DNA of 64,000 nt, from contig RBZT01000500.1 of NCBI GenBank assembly GCA_003693705.1, positions 1 to 64,000 of the forward strand, written 5' to 3'. Below the pieces are notes generated by a model that saw only the letters and a list, made by a program, of their open reading frames with translations, ran no database searches and was not told the DNA's origin. Origin of the DNA: Polymyxa betae A26-41. Its lineage: Eukaryota; Protista; Endomyxa: Phytomyxea. Position numbers and translations under genes: made by a program. Shown here in pieces: positions 49,941 to 63,624 of the stretch (position 1 is the first letter of the stretch; each line of letters starts with the position of its first letter).

Positions 49941-52900
49941 ATGGCATCGGCTGCGAAAGCCGAAGCTGTGGTCGTTATCGACCCTGAAATTGTCCAGCAA
50001 GGCCGTAAACAACAAGACATGGCGATATTATCAGAGCAAGGGTTAAGTGCCGATTTTATCGCTGATAATCTTATCTAACTCTCCTACTCAGATTCTCCAT
50101 CGTTAAGCAGAAGACGTTTCAGATGTCTCCCAACCAGGCGAAGAGATTCTGTGGCGGTGATGAAGTCATTGCGAGTCGGTTCTCGGCTGGACCAATCTGC
50201 GCCCTGATCGTCACTCGCAGCGATGATAGATCGCCTTACGAATCCTTGCGGGAAATCAATCTCGAGACGGTCTTCTTCACCAAGACACCCTATGAAGCTC
50301 TTCGGGCCAAGGTGAACGAAGCATTCGAAATGAAAATTTTGTTTAGATTTGGGTCACTGTCTTTGTTCTCAATAAGAAGCGCTAATCTGGTCATAGATGG
50401 CGCTTTTCCCGGAGCAGAAACAGTTCGAGCGAACGTTTGCTGTCGCTACTGGAGATAAAGCACTTGCTGCGTTAGAAGAAATCATCACTCGAGAAAGCTA
50501 CATCATTGTGTGGCGTGAAGAGCGAGCTCTGTCCAGCTCCGAAGCCGCCGTATTACACGTTCAGCTTTCATTCGAGCAGAAAACGTCGCCATGGTCGAAT
50601 ACACGAATCCTATCTGGTCTGACATTCTTCTGCAGATTATTCGTCCTCGATAAAGTCGGAGCTGTTAACGACCTGCAGTTAGCTGCCGGACCGCCACCGA
50701 CGCCGATTGCAGCTTCGAGTTCCGTCGCCGACGCCCTGAAGGCTATTCGTTTGCTTTGGCCGGAAGGGTTTCCTGTCATCCGAACGCTCGGTAACGAACT
50801 CTTCACTCTTCCTGCTTGCAGCTGATTATCCTGAGTCAGGTTTAATCAAACCGGATGCAGTACGACGCGGTGATCACATCGCCATTCTACAGCTTATCAT
50901 TGAATCCGGATTCACGATCGTCGCTGAGAAGCTCCTGCAACTGACCGTCGAACGGGCGAAGGAATTCTACGAGGAACATCACGGCCGCCCCTTCTTCGAT
51001 GGCCTTGTCGAATTCATGGCGTCGGGCCCGCTGGTAGGGCTTTAAGGATTTGAGGCTCACGGATTCTCAGCAATCTGTTGCCCAGGTTGCACTGGCGCTA
51101 TCACGTCCGAATGCGGTCTCGGCCTGGCGTACAGTCCTGGGTCAGCGCGACCGACAATCGCCGGTATCCAGCGCATTGACGCCAATGTACAGGGCCCACG
51201 AACTCCAATACGGCGCGAGAACTGGCGCCGACATCGTTTCGTGCTTTGTATGGGACAGATGGGCAGAAAAACGCCTGCCATGGATCGTCGTCATCGACGG
51301 CTGCCGCACGCGAACTGGCGTTCTTCTTTCCCGAACTGCCGCCTGATAACCCCAATATCACTAAGGAGGCGATCTCGTCGTTCCTGACTGATAAGCCCGA
51401 TTTCCGCCGTCAGCATGAAGTCAGCTTGAACGAAGTACGCCATGAACGGATTGAAGTCAGTCCGATCTGATTAACAATGATGTAGATTCTGATTCGCGCT
51501 TTAACACATTTGTGTCGAACGAAACCTGTCGGTTTGAATGCGATCGCTGAGCTCGGTTACTGGTTGCGCGATAACAATCCCCGCAAACCGAAAGTTATCG
51601 CGCCCTCCCAGACCTGCGAACAGAACAAAACCGATTCCGGAACGATCCTTGACAAGTCAGAATTGCATTTCGGATCCTTGATTCTCGATTTGCTTTTGCC
51701 CTCGCCAATATTCTGATTTTGCTGGTTTTTTTCGGCTGAATAAATCTTTTTCTGTTTCAAGCTTCAATTGGGATCTGGCAATGAAGGAAAATTTTTTGCC
51801 GATCATTTGAGATGGAACACCTTTGTTTCTGTCATATCAGCGAACTGGTTGATTCGTATCCATCCAGATAATCATGCGTTTAACGAGGTTTTCTTTACTT
51901 AGGCTTCGTAGCCGATCGCTCTCCAACTATGTTCGCATCGTATTCATGCTGGGCGGCCCCGGATCCGGTAAACACACGCAATGTGATCTGATGAAGCGGC
52001 ACCTCGGTCAGCAACATACTGCTTCCCATTCTCTTTTTGCTAATTGCAGCTTAGGCTATTGTCACATTTCGACCGATGATCTGCTCCGTGCCGAGATTGA
52101 CGCCAAGACCATCAAAGGACGCGCCATAGAAGAGACGCTGCAGCAAGGCAAATTGCTCAAAGACGAGATCGTTCTCGATCTGATCTTAGAACATATGCTA
52201 CGATCCGGGGCCAGTACATTCTTGATCGACGGATTCCCGAGACGCCTCGATCAAGCATTCAAATTCGAGGAGCACATCGCGCCCTGCGATTTCGTCCTGT
52301 TCCTGGACGTCCCAGATCAGGTTAGAGAACATTCACCTGTTGACGATCGTTTCTGATCCCCGTCAGACGCTGATCGAGAGACGGGCTCGGGGCTCTTCGG
52401 CCGCTGAAGAAGAGCAGGCACGAAACCAGGCTCGGAGCCAGATTGCCTGCTTGCATCAAGAACAACTGCCTGTTGTTCATCATTACGAACAATTCGAGAA
52501 GGTTCGCAAAGTCGATGCGGCCGGCACCCCAGATCAAGTGTACGACCGCATTCGACGGATTGTTGCCGCATCCGACCCAAACGCGAAACGACCGAAAACA
52601 ACGCTGGAAAGGTACACGCTTGTTTGTTCTTTATTTGATGCGGCAATTCATTCGGCGATAGACTTGAAGCGGACGCAATGGGCAGCAAGATCACGGTGGT
52701 TTTCGTTCTGGGAGGGCCCGGATCTGGGAAAGGGACACAATGTGATTTGATGAAATCGCAATTAGGTTGGGGAATGAAGACCGAGTAACGATTTCATTGA
52801 TGCTGATCTTCGTGAAGGGTTCTTCCACATTTCTTCTGGAGATCTGCTGCGTGCGGAGATCGCGAACAAGACGCCGCTGGGCCTATCGCTCCAGGAGACG

Positions 52901-53378
52901 ATCGTCCAGGGGAAGCTGGTCGACGACAACGTGATCCTAACTATGATCGAGAACGCCATGTTGAAGTCGGGAGCGAATAAGTTTTTGATCGATGGGTTTC
53001 CGAGGCGATTGGATCAAGCGTTCAAGTTTGAAAAACGTATCGCCCGGTGTGATATTGTCCTGTATTTCCAAGCTCCCGATCAGGTAAACAACTGTTTGTC
53101 CGAGTTTCTCAGTTCAAAACAATATTTGCCTTTGAAACGTTTTAACCATTAAATAGGTGCTAATCGATCGCCTTCTCGAACGTGGCAAATCCAGTGGAAG
53201 GTCGGACGATAATATCGAGACAATTCAAAAGCGGCTGCACACGTTCCATGAAGAGTCTTTGCCCGCTGTGGAGCATTATCGACTTTTCGACCGAGTCCGA
53301 ATGGTTGATGCTGTTCGTCCCAAAGATCAAGTATTCGACGACGTCAAACGAATCATGGCTAAAGAGATATCAGTTTAG
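49941..53378 (+). CDS. Multidomain nucleotide kinase: 3 NDK-like domains, Dpy-30-like motif, 2 adenylate/UMP-CMP kinase domains
   Basis: Third NDK has RTLGLIKPDA...PFFDGLVEFMASGP...NACHGS. Dpy-30-like ILIRALTHLCRTKP..AIAELGYWLRDNNP. AK P-loops GGPGSGKHTQC and GGPGSGKGTQC, FLIDGFPR twice. Junction via an in-frame intron 51656-51902 is inferred. Confidence 0.75.
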
Positions 53379-56004: not shown

Positions 56005-56731
56005 TGCATTAAGAGATTGAGCTTAAGGCCGCTCTCACTTGGTTGTGGGAGCCCACATGCCAAACGAACGACTTGAGCGGGCAGCGCCCGACGGATGATT
56101 TACGTTCGAGCATGTCAATGACGCAAGTTCCCCGATCCGAGCGCCTTCAGGATATTTATGAAATATGATTGGCGTCCAGTTTGAGTGGCCTATCAACGAC
56201 ATCAAATACGGTTCGCTTGAATACAGTTTTCTCTTGAGAACTGACAGCTTGATAATCGTTGATTACATGTAGAAGTTTCTGGTTTTTTTGCCAACTCTCT
56301 ATAGATACGAACACGAATGTAACATACCTATAGCATTTATAGTCTTTCGTAATAGAGCGTTCTGACTTTTTCCTAATCGTGCAGTTTCTGTAGAATGAAT
56401 TGAATGGTCTCTTGATAGCAATCAGACTTGCCAACGATGGAGATGGAATTTTGGCAAAGAATTTGCTCGCTTATAAAGATTTCGCAATAGCTCAATAGTA
56501 AACATTCCAGAGTATTCTGCGTCCGTTGCATTAATTGTCACTTAAGGGAATATTCGCGCGGTCAATTCAGACTCCAGACCACTTGTGATCGGCCAACTGA
56601 GGATTCTCGAATTTGCGATAGAACGGCGACCGTTTTTTTATGCCGATCTGCCGCTGCGATTTTCATCCACTACTTTATTTTGCAGGCTATTGGTGTGGCA
56701 GAATACTAAGGCGAGCAAGGTGGCCGATTCA

Positions 56732-59700
56732 ATGTCTGCCGAGCCAACGTGCCTTTTCGACGTTTATCTTGGCGACCCATATAGCGCTAATAATCAAGAA
56801 GGCATTATTGACTTAAGCAGTGCCGAAAACCGCCTCGTCTCAGATATCACGATCCCCGAAATTCAGCGCCACATCAGCGTTGAAGACCCATCGATTTTGA
56901 AGTCAGAATCATCCCTGTTAACAAATGGTGAAAACTGATCACCTTGTAGTTATGGGCGGTCTGGTGGATCAGCATCATTACGCAGCAGCTTTAAAAGTTT
57001 CATACAACAAGTGACCAAGGCGGATATTGAAGCGGATCGATTGACAATGGTGTCTGGTGCCGAGATTGCTGTTCAGATCCTTCTACAGGTCTTGATAAGG
57101 CTTCCTATGAGAAGTAAGCTGATTCGATGTGGCCAGGCTATCTGCAAACCAGCTGATAACGTCGCCGTTGTAATCCCATGCTATCCCGGATTTACAAAAG
57201 CGATTCATTGCTTAGGATTGAATCTGCGGGAAATCAACCTCGACCTCAGCTCTGTAATACTTTCTGGGTGACGCTGCTCATTGTCATTACTAAGATTAGC
57301 AAAGGGAACCGAAATCGTAGACATCGCTAAAGACGTTCGAGCTGTGATCATTAGCAACCCAGATGTCCCTACTGGATGCTGCTGGTCCAGGTATATATAT
57401 TGAATGACTGCGCTTATTTGAATTTCATTGACTTATAGATCGGCATTGCAAGCGCTTGTTGAGGCAACCAAAGCTCAGCGCCAGCATCTGATAATCGACG
57501 AAATTGTATTAACGGCAGTCGTTAAAGAAGGAAGCTTCAGATCTGCAGCCTTTTTTACTGATGACCATGTTCATCTCATATTTGGATTATCGAAAATTGG
57601 CATGGCTGGATTGAGAGTTGGGGCCATCTATTCAAGGCTGCCTCATGCTCTTATGACTGATTTGGCCAGAATAGCTCAAATCGGTTCCATAGAGCAACTA
57701 TTGTCAGCAAACCTCCTCAGCGATAAAGCATTCGCGACGAAGTTGCTAGAAACCAGCCGACGCCGCCTCCGGGCTGCTTATGCGGTCACAGCAGGACGTC
57801 TTGAAGCCGAACGTATCCAATATAAGCTTGGGTCGGCTGGTCTGACGGTCCTGCTGAATCTGGGCGCAGAGTCGTCCGCCCAGAAGCTCATAACCGACTC
57901 GAAAGTCTTTCTGAGAAATCTGACCGAGTTTGGGTCACGCCAACAGGGATGGTTCCGCATGGCAGTGGCTGATGACAGTCAGGTAACATTTCCTCTATCG
58001 CTGATGACCATATCTGATTCTCTTACCTATAGGTAATGGGCATTCTCTGTAAGTGATCAGGGGACCCTGTCTAATTGTCATACACAGGTTGTAGCGACTG
58101 CTATAGCCCGACTGGGCGGTCACCTGCGCCAACATTCGCCTCTCTCTCTATTGCCATCATTTAGAAATAACTTCGCCGATCTCTGGAAGCGGACGGAGCA
58201 GCTATGGGAAATTCTGCAGGCAGATGTCAAATGGACGGAATCTCGTCCAATTCAATTACGCCATCCTTTCGTTTTCTACGTTGGGCATCTGGTAGGCTTT
58301 CTTTAAACGAAGTTCTCGTAAATTCAGCTCTCTTCCAGCCTGCATTCGCCATCAATCAAGTATGTTTGGCATTAGGCGAAGATAATGTTAAGCGGATTAA
58401 TGCCCAGTATGACAGACTATTGTAAGCATAACACTTTCTATCATTTTCTGCACTCAGCATATGTAGTGAACGCGGTATCGATCCAGATGTTTTATCAGGT
58501 GAAGTCCATCCGCATAGTGCTGATATCAACCATTCGAGTTGGCCTTCTATTTCCGATATCAACAGGTTTCTATGCGACGGCTGCTTGTAGATGGCTGTCA
58601 AATGAAACTGTTTTAGTTACGCTGAATCAGTACATCAAACCATATTGCAGTCTCTGCCGATGCTGCTATCTTCTGGTCATTACAACATCGTCGAAATGGT
58701 GCTTGAGCATGAAGTAATGCACCAAGAAAGTGAGTCTGTAAATATCCACTTATCGTGTTTCTGACTTTGCCGATTAGCGCTTGTTTACATGATGGCACAG
58801 TGCGAACCTTCCCAATTACAATGCCCAGCCTCTATTCAAAAACGTCCTTCTTTCCAGAGTGTAACAACTGAACAACGGACTTGTCGTATTCCAGCAGGAA
58901 ATGCAGTTCTTGGCTGTGATGGATCTGTCAACTCTTCAAAGCGATGTAATTACCAAAATCAAGTGTCATGCTCCATCATATTTGATTCGTCACTTTCAGT
59001 TGGATGGGACAATGAATTCCCCAAGACTTCCGTCCATGTGGACGAGTTCGAAGTTATGGCTTTGCCTGTGTCGAACAATGAGTTTCTTCGATTCATTGAA
59101 GATGGGGGCTACTCGAATCCGTCCCTGTGGCTGGATCGGCATTGGGAATGGTTGCAAACACAGGCGATTACACACCCGGCTTCGTGGAAATTTGATGAGG
59201 ATAAAATGCATTGGTAATGGATTTTGATACTATCCGAGAGCTATTGATCACGATATCAACTCAGGTTCGTGAGAGCATCTTTATTTGAATATTCGCCATT
59301 AGATCAGGTGCTGGATTATCCTGTGATGGTATCTTACGCTGAAGCGTCTGCCTATTGCCGCTATGTTGATGCTCGTATCATGACCGAACCTGGTAATGGC
59401 TCGTTACCTGTGACAATCTCACTCTAATTTGTCTCAGAATACCATCGTGCTGCATACGGTGACAATCCCAATCAGCCTTACCCATGGGGATATCTTCCTC
59501 CAGCAGATGTAGGCGCCAATGTTGATTTCAACTTTTGGTCTTTGCGTCCTTCTGGACTTGGAAATACAGGTAACGGATGCGATATTGAATGTGCAACTCT
59601 TTAGTTGTTAAATGTAGAAAGCTGTTTCGGCGTGGCTGATTTAGTGGGCCAAGCTTGGGAATGGACGTCCAGCACGTTTTCGCCATTGGAACAGAACAGC

Positions 59701-61178
59701 AAATTTGTCACAATGCCCACCTATAAAGGATATTCGTCCGAATTCTTTGACGGAAAACATGTTGTTATGAAAGGCGGTTCCTGGGCTACTGATCGCAACC
59801 TTTTACGACCCTCGTTTCGCAATTGGTGGGAGATTTGATCAATTGGCAACACAGCCTGCCTAAATGTGGCTTTAGGTATCAAGACTGTTACCATTATTCG
59901 TTCGGTAAATTCCGCTTGGTCTACGATTCGAGCACATGTAGGAAAAGAACCGATGGCGAAATTGTCCGTTTAATGGAGAATATCGATCATGAAGAGCAAA
60001 GACGCCATTTCGCCTCCAGTGTTAAATCTGGTCTAAAATCGACGCCAAAATCAATCCATTCAATGCATTTCTATGATAATCGCGGCTCGGAGATGTAAGA
60101 GAAGACTCCTAGCGCGAGCTGCTGATGAAAATGAATTTCAGATATGCCAAAATCACTGAACTCGATGAGTATTATCTGACAAAAACCGAGGCTGCGATTC
60201 TGGAGAACTCTGCAAATCACATTTTAGATTTGATCCGTGCCCAGCTACTGCGACATAAGAAGCATTATCTCAACGTCGTTGAGTTCGGTGCAGGTAATCG
60301 CTATCGTCAATCATTCAGATAAAAGCCAATTGCTTGTTAGGTGATGGGAGGAAAACTATACCTTTGCTAAAGCACCTCTACGCCAACGACATAGATCTGC
60401 GTTATTTTCCAATTGACATATCTGAAGGAGCGTTGCGTTCATTACAAGCCAAGTTACGAAGCAGCAACTGCAAGTTCCAGTCCAAGTTCGTTATTGGTGA
60501 TAACATTCAGGGGTTGGAGTACCTCTCAAAAGAAGCTAACGGGCACGCTTTGACACTGGTCTTATTTCTGGGTAGCTCGATCGGCAACCACAACCGAGTT
60601 GAGACAAACCAGCTTCTGCAATCAATGCATTCGAAGTTAAAACCTGGAGATATGGCTATGATTGGATTCGATTTAGTCAAGTCGACCGATACGTTGGTGC
60701 CAGCATACGATGATATGCACGGTATGTAGAAATAATCGATATAGGATGTGCACATTTCTAATGCGAAGCATCTGACAGGCGTCACAGCAGAATTCAATTA
60801 CAATCTTATTCGGCGTCTCAATGCTGAACTGGATGCTCGGATACCATTGGATGCGTTCAGGCATTATGCAACTTACAATCCTACCAAGCAGCGAATGGAG
60901 AGCTACCTGATCGCCACAAAGCCGTTAAAAGTGTCGTTAAATGCGACAATCCGAAATGATCAAGAATCCACGATCACGTTTGAGGCCTGGGAGCCGATTC
61001 ACGTTGAGGTACCGTACGGCTATGGACATTATATTCTTTGGTGCTGATCCAAATACAGAATTCGTACAAGTACACACTGAAAGATATTGAGGCTTTAGGT
61101 GCTGAAAATGGATTTCATCTGTGCCGCCACCTCCTTGACGAGAAACAATGGTTTTCGGACACAATTTTCTTCATTTAA
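56732..61178 (+). CDS. Putative trifunctional ergothioneine synthase: ACC-synthase-like PLP domain + Egt1/EgtB sulfoxide synthase (DinB + FGE) + EgtD histidine N-methyltransferase
   Basis: PLP domain: DPY...GIIDLSSAENRL, PCYPGF, IIDEI, GLSKIGMAGLRVG, GWFR. Sulfoxide synthase: RPIQLRHPFVFYVGHLPAF, FERGIDPDV, HEVMHQE, GWDNE, AWEWT, KGGSWAT, FRNWY. EgtD: GLKSTPKSI..HFYDNRGS, EYYLT, EFGAGDGRKT, PIDIS, FLGSSIGN, AYDD.HGVTAEFN, HVENSYKY. Both junctions read through within exons. Confidence 0.85.
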
Positions 61179-61531
61179 TGATCACCAATACCAATCCATG
61201 CTTTGTTCCGTTTCTGTCGTCCTTTAATCACAACTGTTTCAAATAGAGTAAACCACGAAATTGTTGAAATAACTTGATTGGAATTCGGATGAAAATCGCG
61301 GACTAATCCGACATCCCTGAGTCCAGCGAACGCCAATGTTCATTTGTTTAGTATCTTTCCGTTTATCTTTAGTTTGTGAATTGCGATGCCGTCGACGACT
61401 GCCATGCGAAAAGGCTTCAATCTCCGGCCTGGAGAGCGCATAGGAGCCGAGATTGCCGCCTGTGATATGGGTCATGAAGTTCGTTGAAAACGGCGATTCT
61501 GCGCAGAGCGATTCATTATGTCCAACAGACG

Positions 61532-62401
61532 ATGAAGAAATACCAGACGTACGAGTATCCGTGTAAGATCCAGTTCAAAGGGAAAGAAACCGACAAGGTC
61601 AAAGCATCCTGGATGAAGAACATTGGGACCAAGCCGCGAATTATTCACAGTGAATACGGCAGCCCATACGAATGCTATTTTCAAGAACCTTCTCTTCGAA
61701 AGGGCCAAAACGGCGCCGTTGTGATGACTGTAAAAGCGATCGCCAATCGTCGTCGCGACATCCCTACATTGCGCGACATCGCCCAGACGCAAAAGCCACC
61801 CGAGCCACGTGAAGAGATCAGCGCCCTGAAGAAGGATGAATACAAAGTAGTGCGATCACATTGGGCCACATCGAAATGCGGGACATGCCGCGACAGAATT
61901 CTGCCGGGGCAGATGATCGCTAGAAAGGAAATGAGGAAACGCGCTGATTCCGACCACGGTTGGAGCCATATTCATTGTCTGGCATTAGAGATGAGGATTG
62001 GTAAGGCAAAGCAAGCCAGTACGACGAAAAAGCGAGCCAGTACTACGAAAAAGCGAGGCCGGCCTAGGAAGGTTGAAGAAGCCACTGCTATTAAAAGTGA
62101 AGCGTCTCGTAAACGAAGCGCGTCCGCAAGAACCAGAAAAAACGAAGAAATCCAGGAGACGAATGGAAAGGTAACCCGAGGTCGGAAAAGGAAGGCGATC
62201 GAGGAACCAAGAGCGACGAAACGCGTCAGGAAACGGAAGACGACCGAAGGCGGCAAAGAAGTTTCTAGAAAGCAAACCCTTAAGAAGAAGACCGTTCCGG
62301 CTAACAACGTCACAACTGGTGGCGACCAAGTCCAAGTCGATGGCGCCAATACGACCATCGATACCAATAGCGACAGAAAAAGTCAAAAGAAATCCGCCTG
62401 A
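61532..62401 (+). CDS. Intronless basic nuclear protein with PARP-type Zn-finger-like motif and AT-hook
   Basis: SKCGTCRDRI...WSHIHC (C-x2-C...H-x2-C), KKRGRPRK, Lys/Arg-rich tail. Confidence 0.7.
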   Translation: MKKYQTYEYPCKIQFKGKETDKVKASWMKNIGTKPRIIHSEYGSPYECYFQEPSLRKGQNGAVVMTVKAIANRRRDIPTLRDIAQTQKPPEPREEISALKKDEYKVVRSHWATSKCGTCRDRILPGQMIARKEMRKRADSDHGWSHIHCLALEMRIGKAKQASTTKKRASTTKKRGRPRKVEEATAIKSEASRKRSASARTRKNEEIQETNGKVTRGRKRKAIEEPRATKRVRKRKTTEGGKEVSRKQTLKKKTVPANNVTTGGDQVQVDGANTTIDTNSDRKSQKKSA

Positions 62402-62409
62402 AATCACGA

Positions 62410-63624
62410 ATGGAATTCATCGATAAGCGCCATGAGGGGCGACGTAACAGGACAAATAAACCGAAAACTTTGACTGCAAATTTGAATTTGATGGCGTCGG
62501 CGGAATTCCGAGAGCGTGTGAATATTGAGGTCGCAGCAGGTCGTTCTGACCAATCTCCGCAGACCCGATTCGAGGGCGACCTGATGAGCGTCGATGATAC
62601 CCAGGTCCAGGACGTGATGGGGCGTCTGCTCACGCAGGTCGCCGGCCGCTACGACGATGACATGGAGCGCGATGCGATCGCTGCCAGCCTCGACCTGGAT
62701 GGTCTCAGCAAGACCGCTCGCAAGAAAGCCATCAATCGCGAGCTGCGCCGCCTGCAGTTCCAGGAGAATCGCAAACAGGAGAAAAGTCGCGCCCAGAAAC
62801 GCAGCCGAGAACGAAATCGGGCGGTTTGGGAAGAGCGTCGCGAGCTGGTCGAATCCGGGAAGAGTACGTAACGCCGTACTCGCCCAGGTCGCTGCTGTAT
62901 TGACCCGACCAAATCAGTGACGGAAGCCGAAGCGTTAGCCGACGCTGTTGCCAACGACACCGGGCGGGTTTCGAAGAAGGTGCGCCTGGAGAGGCATCAG
63001 CGTCTGCAGGACGCTTTCAACAGCGACGAGACGCAGCGCATCGTGATCGACTGCGCCTTCGACGATGTCATGACCGAGAAGGAGCTGATCTCGTTTCGTC
63101 ATCAGATCCGTCTGCTATGTAACATTACAAACCCTAACCCTAGGACCTCGCTAATTGGAAACCGTGCAGATGGTTCGAACAAGCGTGCCGATACGCCCGT
63201 CAAGCTGTACCTGACGGGCATGAGCGACGAAGCCGTGGCGGCATTCGCCCCGGAGACCCAACAATGGCTCCTGCATCAGTCCACACAGAACTACACCGAA
63301 CTGTTCCCGCTCCAGGATCTCGTCTACCTCACAGCTGATGCCGACCAGACCGTGGACGTCCTGGATCCCGCCAAGGTTTACATCATCGGCGGCCTCGTTG
63401 ATCACAATCGCCTGAAAGGCATCTGTCACGAGAAGGCTGTCGGGCAGGGCGTCGCCGTCCGTAGCTTGCCAATTTCCGAATATCTCGAAGGCAGCACAAG
63501 GCGCGTCCTAACCGTTAACCAGACCTTCGACATCCTGGTTCAGTACGGTTCGGGTCACGATTGGCGCCTGGCATTCGAGCGCGTAATACCGGCTCGGAAA
63601 GGGTTCAAAGCGAAGACCTCGTAA
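62410..63624 (+). CDS. TRM10: tRNA (guanine-N1)-methyltransferase Trm10/TRMT10
   Basis: IVIDCAFDDVM, LLYGSNKR (after intron 63119-63169), LVYLTAD, YIIGGLVDHNRLKG, LPISEY, VLTVNQ, VIPARK. Confidence 0.93.

Follow-up and report, generated by a model that had tools for sequence, protein, structure and literature searches.

Two described systems stand closest to the gene studied here, which lies at positions 56,732 to 61,178 of a 64,000-nucleotide (nt) stretch, hereafter the window, of Polymyxa betae A26-41 (contig RBZT01000500.1, assembly GCA_003693705.1), and whose predicted product joins a pyridoxal phosphate (PLP) domain resembling ACC synthase (ACS; ACC is 1-aminocyclopropane-1-carboxylate), a sulfoxide synthase and an EgtD-type methyltransferase. 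One is OvoB-OvoA of Hydra and other hydrozoans, described as the unique case in which one chain holds all three ovothiol activities (PMC8433421, on Gerdol et al. 2019). Its order, i.e., PLP lyase, DinB and FGE sulfoxide synthase, S-adenosylmethionine (SAM) methyltransferase, is the same as that of the P. betae protein, its product is ovothiol (sulfur at C5, ring N-methyl), and its lyase OvoB is of bacterial origin. The other is the fungal pair Egt1 and Egt2 of N. crassa, a cysteine-using route with an EgtD-synthase fusion and a PLP lyase that finishes the pathway (PMC13547098, PMC10805701); reviews of ergothioneine accordingly give two enzymes in eukaryotes (PMC13547098, PMC10903977, PMC10805701).

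Unlike Hydra OvoB-OvoA, the P. betae protein has an ACS-like lyase candidate, an EgtD methyltransferase and a hercynine motif in its synthase, and it looks like a separate fusion that converged on the same layout. Fungal Egt2 is a separate protein of the cysteine-desulfurase type and is not among the PDB matches of the fused PLP domain, while the methyltransferase of fungal Egt1 is N-terminal (PMC13547098) and the EgtD of the present fusion is C-terminal. Judged by its sequence, the fusion is a member of neither system: its layout resembles that of Hydra OvoB-OvoA, while its mode of action would be that of Egt1 and Egt2 combined in a single chain. We consider it fairly probable that it forms an aerobic ergothioneine pathway in one polypeptide, the last step of which is performed by a recruited ACS-like C-S lyase. 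The original prediction, which was made from the letters of the window alone, knew of no description of this architecture. No PLP-EgtB-EgtD fusion was found in the literature searched, supplements not being covered (Jones 2014, Gerdol 2019 and Ireland 2024 could list the architecture), and an ACS-like family was not reported there for the last ergothioneine step. Ergothioneine appears in PMC11476981 only within a reference and is absent from PMC13119725. The analogue in Hydra had been missed by the original prediction.

Gene structure and transcripts

The three-domain fusion is real and expressed as one transcript in one frame. A single study supplied four runs of the RNA type (X2-X5), and in each of them one spliced contig of 3698-3797 nt spans both the PLP and the Egt parts, over approximately 56584-61320. 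The contigs were assembled from short reads and are no substitute for long reads; being without a library record, the runs were taken as RNA since the introns are skipped. All 18 introns are GT..AG, with 15 joints read directly and three placed from alignment pieces. Splicing by the contig coordinates gave 3507 nt, i.e., 1168 amino acids (aa) and a stop with no internal stops, and the mRNA predicted from this model is as long as the X2 contig (3797 nt). The single open reading frame (ORF) that had been spliced by hand was thereby reproduced, with the same start and end. Independent support was provided by run X1, a root metatranscriptome from a separate study, in which the joint 57979>58085 connects the PLP core with the junction exon. 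About 6% of each of the raw-read runs X6, X9 and X10 was sampled and gave 0 reads on the gene, which has no bearing on its expression. The introns are about 50 nt long (45% GC), and the gene is intron-rich and of the eukaryotic type. Its features are as follows.

56732..61178, + strand: whole coding sequence, 19 exons, 1168 aa (spliced contigs and coordinate model; ATG at 56732, stop ending at 61178)
56732..58129, + strand: class I PLP domain of the ACS-like type, residues 1 to ~366 (alignments and census; residue roles from PMC8580319)
57593..57595, + strand: K223, predicted PLP Schiff-base lysine, equivalent to AtACS7 K285 (alignment to 7DLW and census)
58154..59924, + strand: non-heme iron sulfoxide synthase, DinB-like and FGE-like, ~aa 375-818 (motif scheme from PMC11030361)
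60003..61178, + strand: EgtD-type histidine N-alpha-methyltransferase (Methyltransf_33), ~aa 845-1168
56732-56901, 56950-57088, 57137-57253, 57305-57390, 57439-57982, 58088-58291, 58339-58421, + strand: exons 1-7
58467-58565, 58617-58729, 58778-58945, 59000-59213, 59265-59392, 59438-59569, 59618-59825, + strand: exons 8-14
59876-60094, 60142-60293, 60341-60721, 60779-61008, 61059-61178, + strand: exons 15-19
58088..58291, + strand: exon 6, with the last PLP helix, a short linker and the opening segment of the DinB-like bundle, carrying R410, Y416 and the iron ligand H419
59876..60094, + strand: exon 15, with the end of the FGE domain, a linker and the start of EgtD
56584..61320, + strand: transcribed extent of the longest contig (X2, 3797 nt); contigs cannot fix the true ends
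57983..58087, + strand: intron 5 (105 nt), divided by an internal AG|GT into parts of 50 and 55 nt, each the size of an intron

Both domain junctions were found inside single exons, as the original prediction had read them. The PLP-to-synthase junction lies within exon 6 and the synthase-to-EgtD junction within exon 15, and both are colinear with a homolog from Chromosphaera, P0175 (27/70 identical, E 3e-10, and 31/80 identical, E 1e-8, respectively). Because the junctions are in frame, within exons and matched by a homolog, the fusion is not a chance product, and an annotation artefact or read-through from a neighbouring gene was ruled out. When 17 exon frames were scanned with Pfam, Aminotran_1_2 was found in two (one under the cut-off), FGE-sulfatase in three and Methyltransf_33 in five, in that order along the gene. 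DinB_2 did not score on any of these single exons; the DinB-like helices of the synthase were placed using the homologs P0029, P0049 and P0175.

Intron 5 is about twice as long as the other 17 introns (45-57 nt). Each of its halves begins with GT and finishes with AG and carries, 17-19 nt before its end, a motif like that of a branch site, and the internal AGGT (AG|GT at 58032|58033) occurs in this intron alone (1/18). If one half alone were spliced out, translation would terminate behind the PLP core, and no contig had the half-spliced form. The split possibly marks a zero-length exon or a recursive splice site. The transcribed leader contains one upstream ATG, at 56640.

Relatives in eukaryotes and bacteria

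To find homologs, the largest PLP exon was used as the query of a full HMMER scan, which gave 220 matches; the best 150 of the 220 were listed and 33, the top and the long ones, were scanned with Pfam. Four of the 33 were fused to a synthase (P0037, P0026, P0029 and P0049). A fifth fusion, P0050, has a PLP domain that continues into the start of DinB, and a profile of four fusions revealed P0175 (1286 aa) of the holozoan Chromosphaera perkinsii, so that the PLP domain is joined to a synthase in six other proteins. The architecture that had been read from the P. betae sequence was thus met in other eukaryotes: P0175 has all four Pfam domains, P0037 (1271 aa) has the PLP, synthase and EgtD parts, and the 1168-aa model aligns with both from end to end at 33-34%. 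P0026, a transcript of Rhizamoeba saxonica (Amoebozoa), has the PLP and synthase parts and, in a record that may be incomplete, ends right after the FGE domain; P0029, P0049 and P0050 are apparently cut by introns. The second-best match of the scan, P0024, was rejected as a repeat artefact. Word-index searches with single exons returned no fused homologs (0/7997 candidates; in a second search, 22 matches, of which 21 were EgtB-like and one was a kinase-FGE protein, none >889 aa). These blanks reflect a limit of sensitivity, because the full HMMER scan did find fusions. A metagenome scan gave two weak loci (32% over 74 aa), and in the ESM Atlas the PLP exon matched only generic Aminotran_1_2 and P0037 had no usable match.

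The six fused PLP domains that were tested formed one clade with the fragment P0025 (Shimodaira-Hasegawa support 99, FastTree, 106 rows), and the fused PLP domains did so again after six long stand-alone branches had been added as a check (100/99, IQ-TREE, 30 rows). The six fused synthases were also one clade (98/96, 36 rows). The three fused EgtD domains formed a clade in 13% of the bootstrap trees, which leaves that node unresolved; they grouped with bacterial L092 and not with the acidobacterial EgtDs, so that the tree does not support descent straight from an egtB-egtD operon of Acidobacteriota. These trees have long branches, some composition-deviant rows and midpoint roots, and cover neither fungal Egt1 nor cyanobacterial EgtB-IV nor GliI, which the original prediction had invoked as a precedent and which is reportedly an ACC-synthase-like C-S lyase. 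A single origin of the fusion is the simplest reading of these groupings, which do not tell vertical descent from transfer between eukaryotes. We lean, if only slightly, towards a broader proposal, namely that this is an old fusion of single origin, present at least in Holozoa, Amoebozoa and P. betae, which would be a complete one-polypeptide ergothioneine synthase with an ACS-like domain whose remodelled PLP site defines a new class of sulfoxide lyase.

The fragments P0025/P0173, P0052 and P0141 share the one-residue deletion after the PLP lysine with the fused clade and are probably further members of the family. In P0166, from the lichen fungus Trapelia, the same PLP family has entered a separate fusion, in which a SAM methyltransferase and an ACS-like domain share one protein.

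The bacterial loci were the best 80 of 582 synthase matches. The closest bacterial synthases were mostly those of Acidobacteriota, with egtD <=5 kb away in 50/80 loci and directly downstream of egtB, on the same strand, in 48/80. Synthase followed by EgtD is thus a common order in the closest bacteria, and the view of the fusion as a "permuted" Egt1 is unneeded, but the bacterial genes are separate and have no ACS-like neighbour. Among the conserved neighbours of the bacterial egtB-egtD pairs (16 ORFs scanned), no lyase was found; transporters and housekeeping genes were found instead. Five bacterial genomes searched with a bacterial ACS-like query gave only distant aminotransferases (best E 5e-21). 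Since bacterial operons give no support, the recruitment of the PLP domain looks eukaryotic. The synthases of these loci (L003-L082) form a large acidobacterial group on the OvoA branch; they have a hercynine-type motif and are under both NCBIfam cut-offs (three proteins scored). Their genes often precede egtD and an AI-2E transporter and lie near an ABC betaine-type importer; 30/80 of the loci had no egtD within the DNA examined.

Domains and proposed reactions

The assignment of the two C-terminal domains to ergothioneine synthesis held up. The EgtD residues of the histidine site are kept in 7/7 cases (Y39, Y56, N166, Y206, T213, E282 and S284; roles in PMC8593015). For the methyltransferase part (METHYLTRANSFERASE), P0037 had EgtD as its top PDB match (E 1e-42), and Methyltransf_33 scored 305 bits on P0037. 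TIGR03438 scored 287.8 and 281, just under its cut-off of 290.9, which places the domain short of the NCBIfam equivalog level. The differences from EgtD, F47>Y, T163>S and M252>S, the last at a position that we take to belong to the histidine site, recur in the bacterial L058 and L060 EgtDs, which are encoded beside egtB.

The synthase has the three-His iron site (H419/H512/H516), E518, Y768 at the catalytic-Tyr position and N801-W802-Y803. It lies on the OvoA branch of the tree and carries a hercynine-type, EgtB-IV-like motif. All fixed positions of the composite EgtB-IV motif RxYH--DxHxHYxNWFx (PMC11030361, a source that does not define type III) match, the Asp being D453, except for F>Y at position 16. 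N-W stands where Y-A is found in 3/3 OvoA, and a bulky aromatic in this motif has been linked to hercynine use (PMC11030361). EgtB-IV (PDB 8VIG/8VIH) was also the best match both by sequence (P0037) and by fold (Rhizamoeba model). For OvoA, the N-W-Y motif and the scores of the fused homologs (176-234 bits) do not fit, and EgtB-I and EgtB-II, and also SenA, lie on the opposite side of the synthase tree from the fused synthases (100/100), which score 151-197 bits with TIGR03440 (cut-off 360) and 150-189 bits with SenA (cut-off 420).

The PLP domain shares with the plant ACS and ACS-like lyases (AtACS7 7DLW, PpACL1) the Aminotran_1_2 fold, the Lys, the Asp, Tyr160 and both Arg positions, the P. 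betae residues being Y119, D192, K223, R230 and R344. Unlike those enzymes, the fused domains lack Q98, have a one-residue deletion after the lysine, have mostly replaced Y248 and are fused into a thiohistidine pathway. This was quantified in a residue census of the fused-clade members against 99 stand-alone relatives (near-copies included, P0050 excluded), with positions numbered as in AtACS7. The Lys, D245 and R419 equivalents were found in 7/7 clade members and Y160 in 6/6, whereas Q98 was present in 0/6 fused domains. The Asp after the PLP lysine is deleted in 7/7 clade members and is Asp in 97/99 stand-alone relatives; position Y248 is Tyr in 1/7 versus 97/99; and position N217 is Asn in 4/6 fused domains (Val in P. 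betae, Ser in P0037) and in 95/99 stand-alone relatives, with Ser also in P0050; the homologs P0175 of Chromosphaera and P0026 of Rhizamoeba are among those that have the Asn. The best PDB matches were seed-plant ACS, by sequence and by fold. EgtE, Egt2 and OvoB were not among the 58 PDB matches of P0037 or the fold-search matches listed, while PatB and beta-C-S lyases were among the weaker PDB matches of P0037. In the predicted Rhizamoeba homolog (predicted local distance difference test (pLDDT) 89.6, predicted template modelling (TM) score 0.79), the PLP part folds as ACS, with a TM score of 0.82 to apple ACS; a fold predicted for the single PLP exon was set aside (pLDDT 39.5). The protein is probably a homodimer through its PLP domains, as in ACS.

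On these grounds, three reactions are proposed. The C-terminal EgtD domain would trimethylate His with SAM to hercynine, and the middle domain would combine free Cys, hercynine and O2 into the C2 hercynylcysteine sulfoxide; conserved residues give both steps good support, and since the synthase is proposed to use free cysteine, EgtA and EgtC would not be needed. The ACS-like domain would then cleave the sulfoxide by PLP beta-elimination into pyruvate, ammonia and the ergothioneine sulfur product, a reaction performed by EgtE (PMC9502471). This last step is the weakest and has moderate support, from the fusion and from family precedent.

Alternative roles of the PLP domain

The lyase role gains support from the fused PLP domains, which are retained next to the synthase in distant eukaryotes and form a single clade, and from the Rhizamoeba protein P0026, which has PLP and synthase without EgtD and so links the domain with the very enzyme whose product the lyase would cleave. 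It gains further support from the non-seed-plant ACS-like proteins, which are C-beta-S lyases without ACS activity (PMC8580319); C-S lysis would thus be the natural family function of the domain. Several observations weigh against a working sulfoxide lyase or an ergothioneine product. The P. betae copy has valines (V163 and V195) in place of N217 and Y248, both of which contact PLP O3', a loss that the original prediction had missed, and in AtACS7 N217A abolishes both activities (PMC8580319); the lyase site may be weakened for this reason, and the loss of the two contacts is the strongest evidence of this kind. Plant ACS-like lyases were assayed on cystine, and the word "sulfoxide" is absent from PMC8580319. 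No ACS-like gene stood beside bacterial egtB (a class I aminotransferase matched in 1/80 loci), and TIGR04344 (OvoA) outscored TIGR03440 (EgtB) in 4/5 fused homologs, both scores being far below the cut-offs. Dedicated lyases are often dispensable, with host enzymes finishing the pathway (PMC9502471, PMC13674229), and the DNA analysed is a 64,000-nt window, outside which a separate Egt2 may be encoded.

The C-terminal domains could accordingly make hercynylcysteine sulfoxide and leave the final step to some other lyase of the cell, the PLP domain of P. betae having degenerated into a scaffold with little or no activity that perhaps serves dimerisation. In line with such decay, besides the two valines and the Ser at N217 in P0037 and P0050, no branch of the fused clade is longer than that of the P. 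betae model (1.25), and ergothioneine forms in yeast without a dedicated lyase (PMC9502471). We nevertheless regard it as unlikely: K223, D192, Y119, R230 and R344 are all retained, the full domain is kept, and the Rhizamoeba homolog is predicted to fold as ACS. In addition, a non-Tyr residue at Y248 in 6/7 clade members looks like a family trait and not random decay, and OvoB has a His (H207) beside D204 (PMC8433421) that may be equivalent to Y248. An active PLP domain might instead serve supply, by cleaving cystine or cystathionine to cysteine or persulfide for the synthase, or by transamination. Cystine is the lyase substrate demonstrated for the plant ACS-like proteins in PMC8580319, and the PatB and beta-C-S lyase matches agree with this, but what the pathway would otherwise be without is exactly a sulfoxide lyase, and Hydra OvoB-OvoA fuses one at the same position, which makes a supply role improbable.

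Still less probable is a thiohistidine other than ergothioneine (ovothiol, 2-thiohistidine or selenoneine), for which the OvoA-side placement of the synthase, the higher TIGR04344 scores and AshA, an example of a changed product in an OvoA-like enzyme, might be cited: both family scores are far under their cut-offs, the fused methyltransferase is EgtD and not of the OvoA C-terminal type, and the N-W motif is of the hercynine type. The original prediction had also offered ACC formation from SAM as something that would matter in a plant parasite; on this view, the ethylene precursor would serve to manipulate a plant host. Chromosphaera and Rhizamoeba, which have the same fusion, are free-living and not known as plant parasites. 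Although seed-plant ACS were the best PDB matches, the PLP domain lies outside the plant ACS clade and has lost the N217 equivalent. Q98 is required for ACC formation in AtACS7, D245 being required for its lyase but not its ACS activity, and ACC was made only by Q98-bearing seed-plant enzymes (PMC8580319); because the fused domains lack Q98, ACC synthesis is the least credible role of all.

If the fusion is indeed a complete pathway with an ACS-like sulfoxide lyase, several lineages of protists join the fungi and bacteria as makers of ergothioneine, and the gene is a natural mirror of the Hydra one-gene ovothiol enzyme, with a convergent layout and different parts, as well as a natural counterpart of the engineered Egt1-Egt2 fusions for ergothioneine production (PMC13547098). 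It would also provide the first physiological substrate for an orphan ACS-like enzyme outside plants, make the function of non-plant ACS-like proteins testable and lend weight to an origin of ACS among C-S lyases. Since exogenous ergothioneine inhibits the germination of Plasmodiophora resting spores (PMC10094275), a parasite-made pool could bear on dormancy, if the organism is a plasmodiophorid.

Elsewhere in the window, tandem adenylate-kinase domains (at least two by Pfam), apparently of one multi-domain gene, lie upstream at 51853-53378. Downstream, a basic, Lys-rich frame without Pfam matches (61478-62401) is covered by a spliced contig and is followed by a gene of the tRNA m1G methyltransferase family (62872-63624).

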